From a virus (taxonomy: Duplodnaviria; Heunggongvirae; Uroviricota; Caudoviricetes), in the IMG/VR virus record IMGVR_UViG_2778261172_000005, positions 1 to 36,440 of that record: a stretch of 36,440 nt of DNA. One strand, given 5' to 3'. Under the pieces are notes generated by a model. It saw only the letters and a program-made list of their open reading frames with translations, was not told where the DNA came from and did no database searches. A program made the translations under genes and the position numbers. Of the stretch, positions 7,047 through 28,657 are shown piece by piece; within the stretch, counting starts at the first letter, position 1; every line of letters begins with the position of its first letter.

Positions 7047-8237
7047 TTAATTGCTGTTAACCGAGGTGACCAGATTTGCCAGGTATTTATCGGTAATACG
7101 CTGGCGCAGGGTCAGGTTTTCAAGAGGAGGCACCGGTGTATAGTCGTAGTCGATATACAGTTTTCCGGCCTTGAGGGTTTCCGCATCGTTGGATTCTTCG
7201 CTGAACCAGCAGGTCGCATCCACGATATAGCCGTTTGTTTTCAGCTCACGGAATTTGGCATTGATGCCGTCAACGATGTCGCGAATCAGCGTTGCGGTGA
7301 TGGGCTTGTCCACCGCCCACATGTGCGCCTCAGCCATCGTGTCGGCCAGCACCTGCGCGGTGCGGGTGTAGTTTTCAAAGAGGAACAGCGGGTCATCAGA
7401 GCAGGTACGGTTACCCCAGAATCGGAAACCGTCGCGGCGAATAATCGTAGTGACGCCTGACTCGTTCAACAGGTCAGCATCGGTGCCGGACTCCTGCAAA
7501 TCCCAGAATACAGAAGCACTGATGCCGGTAACACCGTTTACCCCGACATTGGACAGCGTTTTATGCCAGCCCTGCTCCTGGTCGATTTTAGCGCGCAGAC
7601 CCAGCGCACGGGCGGTGGCATACGCGGTGGCGGTGGAGCTGCTGACCGTATCCCATGCGAGGAAATCCGGCCAGATGACCATCAGCTCACGCTGGCTGAA
7701 ATTCTGGCGGTAGGCTTTCACCTCGGAAATGGTTTTACAGCCCCATGCGCTGATATACCCGAAAGCGCGCAGCTTCTGACAGACTGATGCCAGTGCAACA
7801 GCCACCTCTTTGGTGTCCAGTCCCGGCACGCCGAGAATACGCGGTTTAACACCGGTTACTGACTCCGCCGCCAGCAGGGCTTTCAGTCCGGTGTACTGAC
7901 CGTTTTCGTCGGTGGTGCCGATGATATTGGAAACGGTCTGCGCGAGTTTCGTTTCTTCGTCTTCGCCGGTGCCGTCTTCCACACGCACGACAACGGTGAC
8001 CGGTTTTGACTGGTCGGCGATGGCCTGTAACGATGCCGCCAGCGTGCCTTTTTTACCGGCCTTTGCAATTGCGCTCTGGGCATTGGTAATCAGCACAGGT
8101 TTATTGAGGGGGAAGGTTTCCGCATCCGCATCGCTGGCCGTGCAGACCATGCCGACAATGGCAGTGGATACGGTGGAAATGACGCGGGTGCCGTCGTTAA
8201 TCTCCAGCACCTGCACGCCATGATGATAGTCACTCAT
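7047..8237 (-). CDS. FI: Contractile tail sheath protein gpFI (396 aa)
   Basis: P2-collinear, 396 aa, with SD GGAG 6 nt upstream of the ATG. Confidence 0.9.
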   Translation of the reverse strand: MSDYHHGVQVLEINDGTRVISTVSTAIVGMVCTASDADAETFPLNKPVLITNAQSAIAKAGKKGTLAASLQAIADQSKPVTVVVRVEDGTGEDEETKLAQTVSNIIGTTDENGQYTGLKALLAAESVTGVKPRILGVPGLDTKEVAVALASVCQKLRAFGYISAWGCKTISEVKAYRQNFSQRELMVIWPDFLAWDTVSSSTATAYATARALGLRAKIDQEQGWHKTLSNVGVNGVTGISASVFWDLQESGTDADLLNESGVTTIIRRDGFRFWGNRTCSDDPLFLFENYTRTAQVLADTMAEAHMWAVDKPITATLIRDIVDGINAKFRELKTNGYIVDATCWFSEESNDAETLKAGKLYIDYDYTPVPPLENLTLRQRITDKYLANLVTSVNSN

Positions 8238-8333: not shown

Positions 8334-8360
8334 AAAGAAAAGGCGGGCAATTCGCCCGCC
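8334..8360 (-). terminator. Rho-independent terminator closing the G-FI cargo island before P_F
   Basis: Stem GGCGGGC / GCCCGCC (8342-8348 and 8354-8360). On the minus strand it is followed by TTTTCTTTATC. Confidence 0.6.
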
Positions 8361-8420
8361 TGTCCTGATTTGTACTCACTCATTTTCCGACTGACAATTT
8401 ACATAACCCAAACGCTATCA

Positions 8421-8459
8421 ATTCTGACAGTCTGCTTTGAGCGAAAAGTGGAAGTTCGC
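8421..8459 (+). repeat. Cargo-island repeat, copy C (inverted relative to copies A and B)
   Basis: ATTCTGACAGTCTGCTTTGAGCGAAAAGTGGAAGTTCGC aligns with the reverse complements of 11051-11092 and 9894-9934. In the core there are 22 of 26 matches to copy B. It shares GAAGTT(C)GC with copy A. Confidence 0.7.
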
Positions 8460-8581
8460 AATTATCCTCACCACTGATAAGTAGCCTTTACTTACAATGT
8501 AATGTGTTAGCTAATGTAATAGGAGCTGAGCAGTGAATTATGAATGGATGCTTTAGTTCATATTTGGGAACAAATTACTGT

Positions 8582-8604
8582 AAAAAAAACCGGCTTACAC
8601 CGGT
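8582..8604 (-). terminator. Rho-independent terminator of the 305-aa gene
   Basis: On the minus strand, ACCGG-TGTAAG-CCGGT followed by TTTTTTTT. It lies 58 nt past the stop codon. Confidence 0.7.
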
Positions 8605-8661
8605 TTAAACTCGCTCGCGAGAATCACCCCCCAAATTATATGCAAAATTAAAAATACCAAT

Positions 8662-9579
8662 TCACTCCATTTCTCTTTTGGCTAATTCTTCCCATTCGTC
8701 GATTGAGTTATTATAAGGAAATACCTCTTTAACTATGAAAGGAATGTAGCTTTCTTCAGCATTGTGATGTATTTCATTACTGATATTACTTGTGATTCCG
8801 AATTTTACGTCAGGATCGTTTTCAGAGAAATGTATATGAAAAGGTTGTTGACCTAAAGCCTGTCTAATTTTATTTGCTTGTTCTGATGGAAGGACTTTAA
8901 GTAGCTGTTTGAATGTTTTTTTATTAAAGTCTAGAGAAATGGCCATATCAATATCTCCGGGTATCATAGATATGCACGTGTATGACCGTTCGCTCAATCG
9001 ACTAATAAATTTAGTATTTATAGCAGGGGCACTAAAAGAACCATCTTTAACCAAACCCATTTTTCGAATATGAATTCCAAAATCAGGTGCATAACTCAAG
9101 ACATCCGGATTGGCTTTAATATCTGGATTTAATATCCTAAATAATTTTTCCCAGTAATTACCAATGTCTTTCAAAGAAAATCTGAGTATTGGGTGGAGTT
9201 CCCGTATACTATATAGAACAAATTCATTCCCATTGCACAATGCATACATTTCTGCCCTTATTTCTGGATGTATAGCATAACTATAGGCTTGCTCAACGTG
9301 CATGCTTTTGGTTATTTTTTCATTAGGGGCCTTTGCATCAAGAATCCAATATGGTCGGTCGTTAGAAAGAAAAACATAATCCGGTACTATTGAAATCTTT
9401 CTTGGCTGTGAACCTATTGAGACAAATGGATGTGTAAGCGTTTTGCTCCTGATTACACGACTATCTCCCGATGCTTTATAACCAAGAGCTTTAATAATTG
9501 GTAAAATCAACTCTTCTCTGACTGAATCCTCTTTAAATTCATCTGAGCTTAGTAAGTTAAAATCAAAATCATCAAACAT
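8662..9579 (-). CDS. PD-(D/E)xK nuclease-fold protein with an HsdR-N-terminal-like domain and an unassigned C-terminal half (305 aa)
   Basis: N-terminal pattern EELILPIIKALGYK...IVPDYVF...WILDAKAP...VEQAYSYA...ALCNGNEFVLYS fits the type I restriction R-subunit N-terminal (Mrr-like) nuclease fold, with D, D-A-K and Q signatures. The gene is AT-rich, has its own terminator and sits at the Z/fun position. I am confident it is coding and less sure of the family. Confidence 0.7.
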   Translation of the reverse strand: MFDDFDFNLLSSDEFKEDSVREELILPIIKALGYKASGDSRVIRSKTLTHPFVSIGSQPRKISIVPDYVFLSNDRPYWILDAKAPNEKITKSMHVEQAYSYAIHPEIRAEMYALCNGNEFVLYSIRELHPILRFSLKDIGNYWEKLFRILNPDIKANPDVLSYAPDFGIHIRKMGLVKDGSFSAPAINTKFISRLSERSYTCISMIPGDIDMAISLDFNKKTFKQLLKVLPSEQANKIRQALGQQPFHIHFSENDPDVKFGITSNISNEIHHNAEESYIPFIVKEVFPYNNSIDEWEELAKREME

Positions 9580-9593
9580 ATCCCCCCCACATA

Positions 9594-9623
9594 TATTTAT
9601 TTGACAAAAGATGTATAATTCAA
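9594..9623 (-). promoter_or_regulatory. Candidate sigma70 promoter for the 305-aa gene: -35 TTGAAT (9623-9618), 18-nt spacer, -10 TAAATA (9599-9594)
   Basis: Read on the minus strand directly upstream of a G7 Shine-Dalgarno-like run and the ATG at 9579. This is only a hexamer match. Confidence 0.3.
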
Positions 9624-9893
9624 ATTATTCAGAGCCATTGTAAATCACTATAGAATAAAAAGATAATTTCAAGTGGAGGTGTTATCTGATTTTTTGATTT
9701 ATAGCACAAAAAACGACCTCTACAGGCTGTTTATTACGATAGTTAAAGCTGATCACATTTAGGCAGTCAGTCCAAGATGCTCTCTTCAACATGGCCTAGG
9801 TTTTTTTACCGTCGAAGAAGATAATTGTGTCCATAGCATGATGCTTTCAAGTGGTATGATCTCTTTCTCAGTGATTCATGCAGTATGAGCCTA

Positions 9894-9934
9894 GCAACTT
9901 CTGCTTCTGGCACAGGGCGGACTTTCTGACTGAG
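9894..9934 (-). repeat. Cargo-island repeat, copy A (internal, same orientation as B)
   Basis: Plus strand GCAACTTCTGCTTCTGGCACAGGGCGGACTTTCTGACTGAG aligns with 11051-11092. The shared stretch CTGCTT(C/T)TGGCACAG(G/A)GCGGACT is nearly identical. Confidence 0.7.
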
Positions 9935-10085
9935 TTGAAGGTCTGCTGCGACCGAATATCGGACATTAATAACCTCAGAGACATAGCGCCCTTGAAATGC
10001 ACCCCTCCAGAAATGAAAATCTGTTATGATACTAGCATAAACTATTTATTTTTCAGTAAAGTTTAGAAAACAAATTTTTATGAAT

Positions 10086-10112
10086 AGAAAAAAGGAGAAC
10101 AATGCCCTCCTT
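10086..10112 (-). terminator. Candidate terminator of the DUF2971-like gene
   Basis: On the minus strand, AAGGAG-GGCATTGTT-CTCCTT followed by TTTTTCT. It lies about 20 nt past the stop. The stem is short (6 bp). Confidence 0.45.
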
Positions 10113-10130
10113 CTTTATTTTTAAATTCTA

Positions 10131-10859
10131 CTACAATTTAATTTTTAGTCTTTTAGGAGCATCGTATAGAGTAGATATTTTTATTTCGGCTTTACAACCC
10201 TTATCCTCAATTGCCAATGTGTATGCCTGCCTTAAGTTTTTTTCCATTCTTGGGTCAAATAGCACGGTGTCTAATAGTTCAACTGGATTAATTTCAAACT
10301 GGAAAATATCATTATCGACACTATTATCATCACCAGAATATATTAAACGAACTTCGCTTTCGTGTTCAAACTCCACGCGTTTGTATAAAAGCGATTCAGC
10401 AATGCCTGAGCCATTAGTGTTGAATAAATCAATTGACAAGAGTTTTTCCGAAAGAGTATCCTCCGGAAGATAAGAAACCTTGCCTATAAAACACCTTAAA
10501 TTATGGTAAGTCGGCTCTGCTTTTTGAAGTGCGGCTAATAGTTTTCTTGGTGTGGTTGAAACTCTTACACCATTTTTATCATGGGAATATATCCGCCACA
10601 TTGCATCGGTTTCACTATGAAATGTCCAGCATTGCCCATAAACAGAATCTCTTGCGGCAACTGTTCCTGTTTGACCATCAGAAGTTTCAATTACACAATT
10701 TAATAAAGCGTTCTCAAAAGGGTCATCCCATTTTCTTGGTTTTACTAAAGTTAATTTTTTTTCTTCAAGCAATTGAAGAAAACGGTGTATTGGCATAATT
10801 CTATAAATAGGTATATCCAATGATTCATCTGTTAAATTAATATAGTTATTATAGCTCAT
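10131..10859 (-). CDS. DUF2971-like protein (242 aa)
   Basis: The motif order matches my memory of DUF2971: IYRIMPIHRFLQLLEEKKLTLVKPRKWDDPFE, then GQCWTFHSETDAMWRIYSHDKNGVRV, then LLYKRVEFEHESEVRLIY. The gene is strongly AT-rich and sits at the Z/fun position. Confidence 0.65.
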   Translation of the reverse strand: MSYNNYINLTDESLDIPIYRIMPIHRFLQLLEEKKLTLVKPRKWDDPFENALLNCVIETSDGQTGTVAARDSVYGQCWTFHSETDAMWRIYSHDKNGVRVSTTPRKLLAALQKAEPTYHNLRCFIGKVSYLPEDTLSEKLLSIDLFNTNGSGIAESLLYKRVEFEHESEVRLIYSGDDNSVDNDIFQFEINPVELLDTVLFDPRMEKNLRQAYTLAIEDKGCKAEIKISTLYDAPKRLKIKL

Positions 10860-11050
10860 ACATATTGACCTTTTGGTAGTTAGTGTAATTAAAAAGGCGG
10901 TTGGGATATTTTAGCAAAAACCTAAGAACTGATTCAACCCTGCGGACTTACAGATTTCAGTTCATATATCCAATGTTATAAATTCTCATTTATGAACTAT
11001 TCTCCTAAAATTTTTTGATTTCAATCTTTAGAGAGCGCAAAAGACCTATG

Positions 11051-11107
11051 TTCGAATGACTGCTTTTGGCACAGAGCGGACTGTCAGATTAGGCTTTACT
11101 CTGTGCC
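11051..11107 (-). repeat. Cargo-island repeat, copy B (11051-11092), with an associated 9-bp-arm hairpin GGCACAGAG / CTCTGTGCC (11068-11076 and 11099-11107)
   Basis: It lies immediately downstream of the G stop (11143). See copies A and C for the alignments. Confidence 0.7.
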
Positions 11108-11142: not shown

Positions 11143-11670
11143 TTATTGCGGCATTTCCGGCCATTCAGGATTTGCAGGATCCACACGACTGACCAGAACG
11201 CTGTAGCGTTCCCAAGCCTCCAGCCGTGTGCGCTCCTCCTCTGTTGCCATGTTCAGTCTGACCGCGCGCTCCAGCGGCAAAATCACGGATTCAGCATCTG
11301 CAAGAAGTCTGGCTTTCCGAATTTCTGCCTGCTGCTGTAATTCCTCTGCCGTATAAATGCGTTTAATCACTTTGCCGTCCTTAAACATCCAGCCCCCTGA
11401 AATATCCGCCCGTCGGTTAGCAGTAATATCCGCCACTTCAACCACACTTAATCCATCCGGTCTGATAGCTGTCACATCCTTTTCCACATAGCGGATGATA
11501 TTATCTTTGTCGTACGCTATTTTTATCGTGTCATCAGCAAAATACTTTTGTTCTTCGTACCAGTTCTTACCATCTTCTGTAAAAAACCAGACAACATCAA
11601 AGCCCTTTGTCAATTGATATTGTTCAACTGTTTTTGGATTACCCGCCGTTATATTTATCAAATGCTGCAT
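11143..11670 (-). CDS. G: Tail fibre assembly chaperone gpG (175 aa)
   Basis: P2-collinear, 175 aa, directly downstream of H. Confidence 0.85.
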
Positions 11671-16495: not shown

Positions 16496-17251
16496 TTAGT
16501 TGTAGCACTTCTCTATAATCTTCATACACTCCTCATGAGCTAAATCATGGCTGTCAAATTCTTTATTAAAAAAGAAGAAAAACGCCTTATTAACCTGAGG
16601 TATTTCAATAAAAATAAATTCATCAGCCTTATGAAAGAAATGAAAACTCTTGTTTGATGTTTCAAAAACCATCAAAGAATTATGTTTTTTATCCTTCCAT
16701 TTCGACATCAGATTGCTTCGCGATTTTCGTATAATCCTGAAGACATCCCCCGGCGTCGTATCGACATCCCCCCAAAACATTGCAACCGGGAAGTTTGCAA
16801 GAAAAGGGATATAATCACCCCCTTTATACCTGAGAAAGCGGGTCCGTAAATCCATTAATTGCAACTTAAAGCCCATGTATTGCAACCACCATATGATGCA
16901 ATCATATTCATAATCTGTTAACTCATCCCCCCTCTTTTCCGTAAGAAATTTCTTCAGGTTATACTCAAACACTCCCAGCAAATCAGAATTGCACACTCTG
17001 CATGCTGGTACAGTGACTTTAATGTAATGAGTTGACTGATTATTCTTTTTATTAATTAAAGATTTTTCAGCATTTGACTCAAAGGCCCACTGAGGAATAA
17101 TGTGCTCACGAGTAATATCGTCAGAGCTCCCGCATAACACACATATATCAGCATTATGGTCAGCAATAATACAATCCATAACTTTCTTTTGAGAATGCTT
17201 TACTCTTTTTCTCAAAATGGAAAACTTTTTATCCACAAACACCCGTCTCAT
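16496..17251 (-). CDS. HNH-type endonuclease-domain protein (251 aa) with an unassigned C-terminal two thirds
   Basis: Motif pattern CVLCGSSDDITREHIIPQW...THYIKVTVPACRVCNSDL, i.e. CxxC...EH..P...CxxCN. The gene is very AT-rich compared with its neighbours S and V. ATGA overlap with the S stop (17248-17251). It sits where P2 carries the non-essential orf30. Confidence 0.7.
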   Translation of the reverse strand: MRRVFVDKKFSILRKRVKHSQKKVMDCIIADHNADICVLCGSSDDITREHIIPQWAFESNAEKSLINKKNNQSTHYIKVTVPACRVCNSDLLGVFEYNLKKFLTEKRGDELTDYEYDCIIWWLQYMGFKLQLMDLRTRFLRYKGGDYIPFLANFPVAMFWGDVDTTPGDVFRIIRKSRSNLMSKWKDKKHNSLMVFETSNKSFHFFHKADEFIFIEIPQVNKAFFFFFNKEFDSHDLAHEECMKIIEKCYN

Positions 17252-26975: not shown

Positions 26976-27521
26976 ATGATAAATATTAATGAAGAAATTA
27001 ATAATTCTTTCGATGAGTTTGATGAGGAGGATAAACAGCAAGCTTACTTATCTTTCTTTAAAAATAGTTTCCCTTTTTTACTTTGCCCAACTCTATTCAA
27101 ACGCAGTGAAGATCTCCCTCAATTAAATTGGGTGAAAGTAAAATATACTGAGCATGCGGCTCATACTTTCCCAAATCAACAGGGAGTATATATGTTTATG
27201 GTTGGTTTCGAAAGCACTAAGCTCCCCAATAATTCATATGTTATGTATGTAGGAAAGGCCGGCGATACTAATTCCAACAACACAATCTGCAAAAGGTTTA
27301 AAGATTACGTTAATCCATCTGGATTTAGAGACAGGCCCAGAGTTAAGAAACTCATTCAGCATTTTAGTGAGCATTTATATTATTACTATGCAACACTCCC
27401 AACAGGGCAATCCACAGCAGATGTTGAATCCACTTTAGCCGATATTTTCGCACCACCTTGTTGTCAACGAGATTTTTCAGCTAATGTGCGAAGCTTATTG
27501 AGAGGAGTTAGAATTATATGA
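26976..27521 (+). CDS. GIY-YIG-like nuclease-domain protein with an acidic N-terminus (181 aa)
   Basis: QGVYMFMV-x11-SYVMYVGKAG...ICKRFKDY...YYYYATL...ADVESTLADIFAPP follows the GIY...YIG...R...E order of GIY-YIG catalytic cores. The gene is AT-rich. Its stop overlaps the next ATG (ATGA at 27518-27521). Confidence 0.6.
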   Translation: MININEEINNSFDEFDEEDKQQAYLSFFKNSFPFLLCPTLFKRSEDLPQLNWVKVKYTEHAAHTFPNQQGVYMFMVGFESTKLPNNSYVMYVGKAGDTNSNNTICKRFKDYVNPSGFRDRPRVKKLIQHFSEHLYYYYATLPTGQSTADVESTLADIFAPPCCQRDFSANVRSLLRGVRII

Positions 27522-28657
27522 ATCAACGTTTAGTCCTTCCATGTTTGAGAGGCTATATGGGGAGCTGGATTACATATAGTTGCATGATGAGACTTTCAGA
27601 TGCATCCAATTTGATCGGGTTTGCTGAGGAACTCCATCAAATTGATAAATTGTCAGACAAAATACAACGTGAATTAAATAATGATAGGGCTGAAGAAATC
27701 TCTCATTATTTGGTTAGCAATGATGATCGCTTCTTTAACTCATTAGTTGTAGCTGTTTATGATGGCGATCCAAATTGGCATGAAATTGGAGGAATAACTC
27801 CAAACAATGAAGAAGCCTCTTTGCTTGATTTTCCTGAGTATGCAGGGAATTGCATTGGTTTTTTATCCATTACAAGAGATGAAAAATTTTTTGCACTTGA
27901 TGGACAACATCGCTTAGCTGGCATCAAAGCTGCTCTTAAAGTTAATAGCGATATTGCTGATGATCTAATTAGCGTTATTATTGTTGCTCATGCTAATACG
28001 CCAGAAGGTAAAGTAAGATCCAGAAGATTATTTACCACTTTAAATAAAAAGGCAAAATTAGTTAGTAAAGATACCATTATAGCTTTAGATGAGGATGATA
28101 TAGCAGCATGCATAACAAGACGTCTAATTGAGGCAGAGGATTTCATATACTTCAATGAAGATAACGTATCCTTTAACTCTGGTCCTGTTAGAGATAAAAC
28201 GAGCATCACATCTATTGTTAATATATATGATAATGTTCAGAAGTTAGTAGCATATAAATTAGGTGTTAAAATTACCGAGTTGGAAAGATACAAGTATAAA
28301 GATCATATTGACATATACAACTTCATTTCTAATTTTTATAGCTACACATTCGAAGGATGTGAAGAGTTAATCAAAGTAGCTAAAGGTGAACAACCTGCTG
28401 GATTTTATAGAAATTCCGAAACTGGTGGGCATATTTTGTTTAGACCTATTGGTTGGGATTTATATACAGATATAGTACTCTATGCCATGACTCATTTTAA
28501 TCATGACCTTAAAAAGGCAATTCAACACATCACCAAACACAATCTAAACATGTCTGGCTCTATTCTATCCAACAAAGTTTGGTCAACAAAACAAAAGAAA
28601 ATCCTTAAGATAAGTGCTAAAAACATAAAAGCAATACAAAAAAGTTTGTTATCATAA
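27518..28657 (+). CDS. DGQHR-domain (DndB-like, ParB/Srx-fold) protein (379 aa)
   Basis: It carries the literal motif FALDGQHRLAGIK followed by RRLFTTLNKKAKLVS, the signature of the DGQHR/DndB family. The gene is AT-rich and translationally coupled to the upstream ORF. Confidence 0.75.
   Translation: MNQRLVLPCLRGYMGSWITYSCMMRLSDASNLIGFAEELHQIDKLSDKIQRELNNDRAEEISHYLVSNDDRFFNSLVVAVYDGDPNWHEIGGITPNNEEASLLDFPEYAGNCIGFLSITRDEKFFALDGQHRLAGIKAALKVNSDIADDLISVIIVAHANTPEGKVRSRRLFTTLNKKAKLVSKDTIIALDEDDIAACITRRLIEAEDFIYFNEDNVSFNSGPVRDKTSITSIVNIYDNVQKLVAYKLGVKITELERYKYKDHIDIYNFISNFYSYTFEGCEELIKVAKGEQPAGFYRNSETGGHILFRPIGWDLYTDIVLYAMTHFNHDLKKAIQHITKHNLNMSGSILSNKVWSTKQKKILKISAKNIKAIQKSLLS

Follow-up and report, generated by a model that had tools for sequence, protein, structure and literature searches.

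A stand-alone HsdR-type nuclease with an OB-fold module as mobile, plausibly defensive cargo of a P2-like prophage

We analysed a stretch of viral DNA of 36,440 nucleotides (nt; IMG/VR record IMGVR_UViG_2778261172_000005, hereafter the window), which is a P2-like prophage with a 100% match in Escherichia coli JNEC-KY180. Between its tail fibre assembly gene G and its tail sheath gene FI lies a gene for a protein of 305 amino acids (aa). Our main finding is that this protein is a stand-alone two-domain nuclease, in which an OB fold follows a PD-(D/E)xK domain of the HsdR type, and that its gene is cargo of mobile elements. From its genomic context, it plausibly represents a new single-gene family of defence against phages or rival mobile DNA. 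The gene sits in a cassette bounded by two related palindromic motifs, m1 and m2, and this motif-bounded structure is a more unusual observation than the protein itself.

The N-terminal half is a nuclease domain

The gene and the two domains of its product map to the following positions:

8662..9579, minus strand: coding sequence of the 305-aa protein (WP_089618320.1, E. coli JNEC-KY180), from the list of open reading frames (ORFs) and the sequence, homologues and the ratio of nonsynonymous to synonymous substitution (dN/dS)
9145..9579, minus strand: PD-(D/E)xK nuclease domain of HsdR, type IIG or RecB type, residues 1–145
8710..9087, minus strand: OB-fold-like domain, about residues 165–290

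The ORF starts with ATG behind a G-rich Shine–Dalgarno sequence at 9588..9581 and lies in an island of 33–37% GC, in agreement with an earlier reading of the window from its sequence (the original prediction), which had described an AT-rich, minus-strand ORF of this length. That reading had also picked out four N-terminal motifs as the signature of a nuclease of the HsdR-N type. All four are present (P66-D-Y-V, L80-D-A-K83, E96-Q-A-Y-S-Y-A and N116-G-N-E-F), and they coincide with the invariant columns of 38 homologues of 49–90% identity, in which D67, K83, E96, Q97, Y101, N116, G117 and F120 never vary and position 81 is either D or E. The catalytic residues are D67, D81, K83, Q97 and Y101.

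AlphaFold2, supplied with the family alignment, produced a confident two-domain model (pLDDT 87.6, pTM 0.58) that contains a nuclease, an OB fold and nothing else. As modelled, the N-terminal domain has the PD-(D/E)xK fold of the HsdR, type IIG and RecB type, with every catalytic position conserved, and its structural neighbours include Hjc, Cas4 and Dna2. The intact catalytic set and the structural model thus uphold the proposed nuclease, with membership of the HsdR_N nuclease superfamily at the level of the fold only. With 22.8 bits for the window protein, Pfam HSDR_N (PF04313) stays below its gathering threshold of 25.1 bits, and the fold assignment therefore rests on structure and on homologues, many of which have precomputed PF04313 hits (with relatives at 26.2 and 33.1 bits). 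Two type IIG N-terminal models of PADLOC v2 matched the protein weakly (9.4e-6 and 6.9e-3), and scans against NCBIfam and PHROGs returned nothing useful. When the family profile was aligned with one full-length HsdR, the catalytic motifs fell into register with a probability of 0.25%, that is, without statistical support.

The C-terminal half is an OB-type module

The C-terminal half had been described as matching nothing recognisable, a view that the model overturns: it is a five-stranded beta-barrel with a helix between strands 3 and 4, as an OB fold has, and its conserved residues are D166, G168, Y200, T201, F218, P246, F260, N273, E276 and F281. A structure search of BFVD gave weak SSB-type matches and no more, and no Pfam model covers the module.

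To establish where else this domain occurs, a profile of it was searched against 1.84 billion representative proteins, which yielded 409 proteins at E ≤ 0.001. Among the best 149 of these 409, 59 combine a nuclease with the OB module and 59 consist of the module alone (typically 124–135 aa); in a further 11 it is N-terminal to another part, and in 8 it follows a non-nuclease N terminus. One stand-alone copy is a complete gene of 127 aa with neighbours on both sides within its contig, and another adjoins AbiE and a TraI relaxase. The fusions bring in a multi-pass transmembrane segment (P0251), Sel1 repeats (P0234) or a helical domain, the last on either side of the module (P0171, P0240 and P0253). 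The OB module is an unnamed domain family of its own, and such varied partners look like the behaviour of a recognition module joined to different effectors. A sensor-type role for the C-terminal half, as originally proposed, would fit both the predicted fold and this modularity.

The family is widespread, conserved and without a fixed partner

A homologue search returned 987 matches, nearly all of 285–305 aa and aligning end to end, and a scan of species-representative genomes found 118 relatives with identities down to 35%. By organism name, full-length relatives occur in at least ten phyla (Pseudomonadota, Desulfobacterota, Bacteroidota, Bacillota, Planctomycetota, Acidobacteriota, Verrucomicrobiota, Deinococcota, Armatimonadota and Sumerlaeota), and one member is on a cyanobacterial plasmid. 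A cluster of more than 90% identity extends over Escherichia, Citrobacter, Enterobacter, Morganella and Serratia. The coding sequence has a dN/dS of 0.09–0.12, and comparison between cassettes gives 0.08–0.13 for each half taken alone, values that show strong purifying selection on both.

A conserved partner gene is lacking: the commonest neighbour family was present in 6 of 80 diverse loci (integrases recurred most, followed by type I HsdR with YgjP and then by IS110 transposases and helix-turn-helix (HTH) regulators), and no Pfam family appeared in more than 4 of the nearest neighbours (n = 149). The original prediction had remarked on the lack of a methylase, helicase or specificity gene; this holds in the window, and none is conserved in the 80 other loci, 5 of which have a full-length HsdR nearby. 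The nearest neighbours do include a series of defence genes, namely Drt5, NucC, PbeA, QatD, PD-T4-6, mad2, PDC-S05 and type I HsdR.

In a clade of about 40% identity, comprising loci from Citrobacter braakii, Atlantibacter, Buttiauxella and two Flavobacterium species (L038, L042, L057, L070 and L077), the family gene adjoins a full-length type I hsdR, which suggests a placement at the edge of restriction–modification (R–M) islands. The three enterobacteria of this clade also have a YgjP-like metallopeptidase gene.

The gene moves as a cassette

The gene occupies a low-GC island within a prophage of about 55% GC. The island is flanked by G (11143..11670, minus strand) and FI (7047..8237, minus strand) and holds two minus-strand genes, that of the 305-aa protein and a DUF2971 gene (10131..10859), a second cargo that the original prediction had left unmentioned. 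The claim that this is the variable Z/fun cargo locus of P2 holds, because P2's own annotation places the T5-blocking fun(Z) between G and FI and because RES, HNH or FlxA-like cargo takes this position in other P2-like prophages of E. coli. The cargo of the window is present in just 1 of 5,426 complete E. coli genomes.

Comparison across contexts delimits a unit around the gene:

8424..9967, minus strand: whole mobile cassette (m2, upstream region, gene, terminator and m1), from cross-context nucleotide identity
9580..9925, minus strand: upstream non-coding region of about 340 bp, conserved and mobile with the gene, from a six-context alignment with 79% mean identity
8582..8606, minus strand: intrinsic terminator, AAACCGGU-GUAA-GCCGGUUU followed by a U-run, from a terminator scan, folding and cross-context conservation

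The homology common to all mobile contexts runs from about 8420 to 9925 and covers the gene with about 340 bp upstream and about 240 bp downstream. Nucleotide identity of the cassette is 81–85% to five loci (L003, which is P4-like, L004, L009, the lambdoid L014, and L019) and about 97% to eight others (L108–L115). Close relatives of the gene are found at the end of a P4-like satellite; in the old/tin hotspot of a Serratia P2-like prophage, between portal and gpA and adjoining SIR2-HerA; in a Klebsiella integrase/resolvase island; and in a lambdoid prophage, as an oppositely oriented insert between ParB-HTH and ORF6N/antiterminator genes. The gene thus moves as a cassette of about 1.5 kb with its own upstream region and terminator, and it has landed in both cargo hotspots of P2-like prophages, in a satellite of the P4 type, in a prophage of the lambdoid type and in integrative islands. 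The homology of 8424–9967 with P4-like, lambdoid and island contexts vindicates the view that the gene is a separate cargo unit and no part of a tail operon.

The signals within the cassette agree in part with what had been proposed. A strong terminator had been placed at 8582–8604, and the scan, the folding energy and the comparison of contexts all recover it: a hairpin of 8 bp (8606..8587) is followed by a T-run that reaches 8582, the fold has −13.9 kcal/mol (z = −2.2), and the structure is retained in five of six mobile contexts, with varying loops. The promoter proposed at 9594–9623 (TTGAAT-N17-ATAAAT) found no support. It was not returned by a consensus promoter scan, its hexamers differ among the mobile contexts, and a transcript starting from it would begin within the Shine–Dalgarno sequence. 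Two other candidates are better conserved than that one (9623..9594), one at 9850..9821 (TTGAAA-N18-AATTAT) and the other, an extended −10 element (TGcTATAAA), at 9706..9698. Rfam showed no real family in the long conserved leader or in the island.

Among the contigs read that encode the identical protein, one E. coli assembly has an IS21-family element (transposase and IstB; L107, 8223–10525) between the terminator region of the gene and FI; the other 23 have the arrangement seen in the window. A second terminator-like hairpin, of 9 bp with 7 GC pairs and stronger than that of the cargo, is found at 8341–8361 (minus strand), in a part of the conserved P2 backbone that separates m1 from the FI promoter region; transcription of the cargo would thereby be kept out of the F operon.

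Related palindromic motifs bound the cassettes

The longest direct repeat in the region (8425–8452 and 9936–9963) coincides with the cassette ends that had been set independently by homology. Alignment of the cassette ends from ten contexts gave a consensus of about 27 nt. Two related palindromic motifs of 23–25 nt can be told apart, m2 (GTCCGCTYYGTGCCARAAGCGGA) 5′ of the cargo and m1 (CTTCCGCTYYTCGCTCAWAGCRGAC) 3′ of it, which have the arms TCCGCT/AGCGGA in common. In the window they are placed as follows:

11059..11081, minus strand: m2 on the G side of the hotspot (GTCCGCTCTGTGCCAAAAGCAGT), where homology to the P2 backbone starts again (11062–11067)
9936..9963, minus strand: degenerate copy resembling m1 at the end of the DUF2971 cassette, with 13 nt to the next m2; forms repeat D1 with 8425–8452
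9900..9922, minus strand: m2 at the 5′ boundary of the 305-aa cassette (GTCCGCCCTGTGCCAGAAGCAGA); coincides with the 5′ end of cross-context homology
8430..8454, minus strand: m1 at the 3′ boundary of the 305-aa cassette (CTTCCACTTTTCGCTCAAAGCAGAC); P2 backbone junction upstream of FI

Read along the minus strand, the order is m2, DUF2971, degenerate m1, m2, the 305-aa gene with its terminator, and m1, and P2 backbone homology stops at 8456–8465, beside m1. The order m2–cargo–m1 returns in P2 prophages with RES or HNH cargo and in a P4-like satellite, and two of the loci with about 97% cassette identity (L108 and L109) read m2–DUF2971b–m2–305–m1.

Loci beyond the window in which the motifs were studied were L003, L099, L100, L108–L115 and L119–L167. 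A fuzzy motif search, which yields 0.1–0.15 matches in shuffled windows, found neither m1 nor m2 in the old/tin hotspot of the window. In a scan of IMG/VR, m1 occurred in 49 contigs, in a single copy each; in 11 of them it lies 193–220 bp from the FI start, and in the remaining 38 it is elsewhere, in non-P2 surroundings. Over 462 kb, m2 was on the same strand as m1 33 times and on the opposite strand twice, with no occurrence in shuffled sequence, and it lay 0.6–4.8 kb upstream of m1 in 21 of the 32 loci with enough upstream sequence. In seven cases of tandem cassettes, 16–19 nt separate m1 from the m2 that follows it.

The junctions at the flanks are sharp: the same cargo end meets three different backbones by way of m1, and the same backbone meets many cargoes. 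On the backbone side, the neighbours of m1 are P4-type integrases (once with a distance of 3 nt between motif and stop codon), the replication protein P of lambda, and SRAP; among the cargoes bounded by m1 are two GmrSD enzymes, FlxA, and one protein each with TIR and HNH assignments. We also considered m1 as a high-copy repeat of the REP/ERIC type and rejected this, the median being 1 copy per carrying E. coli genome and the maximum 3. Together, m1 and m2 form a candidate recombination site for the swapping of defence genes. The motif strings gave no literature match in a search that did not cover older P2 papers (Nilsson et al. 2004, Odegrip et al. 2006), and a prior description is possible.

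The DUF2971 gene is a neighbouring cassette

The second cargo of the island and its remnant in another strain are:

10131..10859, minus strand: DUF2971 gene, a PADLOC PDC-S31 candidate of 242 aa (PADLOC 1.1e-94; Pfam DUF2971)
L002 5975–6038, against L108 6608–6671 and window ~9904–9967: remnant of the nuclease cassette in E. coli SE11

The DUF2971 family is predicted to be a DarT/AbiGi-like ADP-ribosyltransferase that acts on DNA (PMC12522546). In Enterobacterales, the nuclease gene often comes after a DUF2971 gene. Within the cluster of more than 90% identity, a 305-aa cassette of about 97% identity lies directly 3′ of another DUF2971 gene, DUF2971-b, in CP4-like and AlpA/DUF6387 islands. DUF2971-b has no detectable sequence similarity to the DUF2971-a of the window (blastp E = 0.06; below 20% identity), and both lineages score as PADLOC PDC-S31. 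Because two sequence-unrelated DUF2971 lineages precede the cassette, the pairing arose at least twice. The block of DUF2971-b and the 305-aa gene is mobile as a 2.56-kb unit between the two island types, and in both versions the two genes are 455–551 bp apart, with m2 in between. DUF2971 is missing from close relatives in other contexts and from at least 78 of the 80 diverse loci. By their arrangement, the two genes read as tandem cassettes, each of which also occurs alone; the recurrence of the pairing in other islands led us to qualify the idea that the cassettes are fully independent.

The homology of the DUF2971 cassette (9930–10935) matches E. coli SE11. There, DUF2971-a is followed by a 65-bp piece of the 5′ end of the nuclease cassette and then by the hyp305/YagK flank of L108, as if the 305-aa cassette had been lost precisely or had never inserted.

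Comparison with known systems

The closest known nuclease domains are the N termini of HsdR and of type IIG enzymes (PF04313, BpuSI_N and MmeI_N; Protein Data Bank (PDB) entries 3h1t, 2w00, 3s1s and 7lo5). Like them, the protein has D, (D/E)xK and QxxxY in the same order and spacing, with about 13 residues between each. Unlike HsdR, it is only 305 aa long and has neither an SF2 motor (no ResIII or Helicase_C Pfam match) nor HsdM and HsdS; unlike the type IIG enzymes BpuSI, MmeI and DrdV, it lacks a methyltransferase and a target-recognition or specificity domain, and the PADLOC model REase_MTase_IIG matches its N-terminal ~120 residues alone (9e-6). It also differs from both groups in the OB fold that follows the nuclease.

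In organization, it resembles Shedu (SduA) and Upx, in which one gene found in defence islands and mobile elements encodes a PD-(D/E)xK effector and a non-catalytic domain. It differs from them in having no PADLOC match, another nuclease subfamily and another accessory domain, and its defence role is taken from context. It is also like the type IV enzymes PvuRts1I/AbaSI and MspJI, with about 300 aa, a nuclease, a beta-rich putative DNA-binding domain and no methyltransferase; unlike these, it has an OB-like domain in place of an SRA, PUA, EVE or YTH reader fold, and no sequence relation to the solved structures. DARNA (PD-T7-3) consists of one protein, an effector that the single-stranded DNA of phages switches on (bioRxiv 10.64898/2026.02.22.705581). 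The likeness to it is one of concept, an N-terminal nuclease effector with a C-terminal domain, which in DARNA binds single-stranded DNA as the infection signal; we rejected a kinship, as DARNA has a HEPN RNase and a helical sensor domain, forms dodecamers and shows no relation in fold or sequence. The 305-aa protein thus belongs to none of Shedu, Upx, type IV and DARNA.

As cargo, the gene is comparable to fun(Z), tin and old of P2, non-essential AT-rich genes in the two variable loci of that phage, which exclude other phages (PMC9122126). Homology to P2 Tin or Fun(Z) was rejected (hhalign probability 0.2% each). The original prediction had referred to reported single-gene HsdR-like defence genes from phage-satellite hotspots, which the main text and supplementary tables of Rousset et al. 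2022 (PMC9122126) do not bear out. The main text mentions hsdR solely as a target of a single-guide RNA (sgRNA). The supplements list weak HHpred matches to BpuSI_N/HSDR_N for P2 Tin and P4 cII, together with a two-gene arrangement, 'KAP_NTPase + S1/HSDR_N', in the P2 old/tin hotspot. The S1/HSDR_N protein (WP_001678413), compared here by its description only, likewise joins an OB-type (S1) domain and an HsdR_N nuclease in a P2 hotspot; unlike the single gene of the window, it is part of a two-gene arrangement. Crouga, Bandua, Aernus, Toga, Reve and Hailong (2026 NAR paper), judged by their descriptions, do not fit, and a Campylobacter 'HsdR N-terminal domain' gene (PMC8713573) matches in name alone.

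Proposed function and alternatives

We lean, by a little, towards a model in which the OB module binds nucleic acid exposed by infection and thereby targets or licenses the nuclease. The likely ligand would be single-stranded DNA or a replication or recombination intermediate that becomes exposed in an infected cell. Binding would position the nuclease on the invading DNA, or license it to cut, and host DNA would escape because an uninfected cell lacks the ligand or keeps it masked. The outcome would be either direct restriction or abortive infection. If the protein does protect against phages, it would be a compact and widely distributed nuclease system of 305 aa with a new domain logic, an HsdR-type nuclease joined to an OB fold, and the recurrence of the OB module with other partners would provide a handle on how infection signals resembling single-stranded DNA are sensed.

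Several observations weigh against this model. The family has no phenotype, biochemistry or named system, and literature searches on the annotation string, the accession and PDC-S31 found nothing relevant and no paper on the family. PADLOC v2 returned no match to its Shedu, Upx, PD-T4/T7/Lambda or PDC models, a search of PDB sequences with the family-alignment profile gave nothing at E ≤ 1, and the family was not found in 50,697 deposited phage genomes. The association with defence genes is guilt by association, and across phyla most nearest neighbours are ordinary genes. The arrangement of the two domains in the model is uncertain (pTM 0.58), and a DNA-binding surface would not usually have an acidic motif such as HNAEESY, which is conserved in the OB domain. 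In addition, an unregulated nuclease would need a rule for telling self from non-self, and none was identified here.

An alternative that we rate as unlikely is that the protein is a type IV-like, modification-dependent enzyme, in which the C-terminal beta-barrel reads a modified base, such as the hydroxymethyl- or glucosyl-cytosine of T-even DNA, or foreign methylation, and the nuclease cleaves close by. The lack of need for a methyltransferase and the host's tolerance of the gene would then be accounted for. Enzymes of the PvuRts1I/AbaSI and MspJI type consist of a nuclease and a DNA-binding domain in about 300 aa and work without a partner; the architecture of the 305-aa protein and its constitutive-looking own promoter would parallel theirs, the gene stands alone in 80 loci, and GmrSD type IV enzymes occur in other cassettes with the same boundary motifs. 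However, the protein has no sequence relation to any PDB chain, solved type IV enzymes included, and OB folds are not known to read modified bases. We consider it improbable that the protein forms a loose two-gene unit with DUF2971, in which, for instance, DNA marked by the transferase, or stalled, would be the substrate of the nuclease, or one of the two would restrain the other. The cassette, at ≥97% identity, does stand directly 3′ of two sequence-unrelated lineages that share the PDC-S31 assignment, the block with DUF2971-b moves as a whole, and the predicted ADP-ribosyltransferase would act on DNA (PMC12522546). Yet each gene is found without the other: SE11 has DUF2971-a alone, and relatives of 88–90% identity in four or five contexts lack DUF2971, as do the diverse loci counted above. 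The gap between the two genes holds a boundary motif in both versions, PDC-S31 is by its naming a single-gene candidate of PADLOC, and a protein that stays 97% identical next to partners of less than 20% identity argues against a specific protein–protein interaction.

A role outside defence, either as a homing-type or recombination nuclease acting on the hairpin-capable boundary motifs or as an accessory of repair or recombination, strikes us as highly improbable. In its favour, the gene occupies exact, motif-bounded junctions in a wide range of unrelated contexts, the structural neighbours of its product include Hjc, Cas4 and Dna2, and the predicted pairing of an OB fold with a RecB-type nuclease would suit the structure-specific cleavage of single-stranded or hairpin DNA. 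Against this, the same motifs bracket non-nuclease cargoes (TIR, RES, FlxA and DUF2971), and the movement of cassettes is therefore independent of the 305-aa protein. Moreover, most cassettes lack the gene, and the family is widespread in phyla in which the enterobacterial motifs are not expected.

Returning to an infection-sensing defence nuclease, a more far-reaching version of it is possible, if doubtful: the protein would be the founding member of a phylum-spanning, single-protein defence family that couples an OB sensor to an HsdR-type nuclease and, at the same time, cargo of a cassette-exchange grammar bounded by m2 and m1, family and grammar both being so far undescribed. Here, site-specific or structure-specific recombination machinery would bind the 5′ motif GTCCGCTYYGTGCCARAAGCGGA and the 3′ motif CTTCCGCTYYTCGCTCAWAGCRGAC and shuffle defence genes among P2-like phages, P4-like satellites, lambdoid prophages and integrative islands. 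A 2026 NAR study of P2/P4 hotspots describes the mechanism of exchange as unresolved (PMC13586616), and the cassette grammar, if true, would supply it. The boundary motifs are a concrete candidate for the means by which unrelated mobile elements exchange defence genes, and they could be used to locate cargo cassettes, and hence new defence genes, straight from sequence.

Other cargo sites in the window

The other hotspot of the prophage, the old/tin site between portal gene Q and gpA, lies at 26976–28657 (plus strand) and carries the gene of a 181-aa protein without a family match, together with an overlapping gene for a 379-aa protein with a DndB-like/DGQHR domain. Between baseplate gene V and tail completion gene S is a low-GC (37–40%) ORF of 251 aa (16496–17251, minus strand), which has no Pfam or PADLOC match and occupies the position of the non-essential orf30 of P2; this site may be a third, small cargo site.

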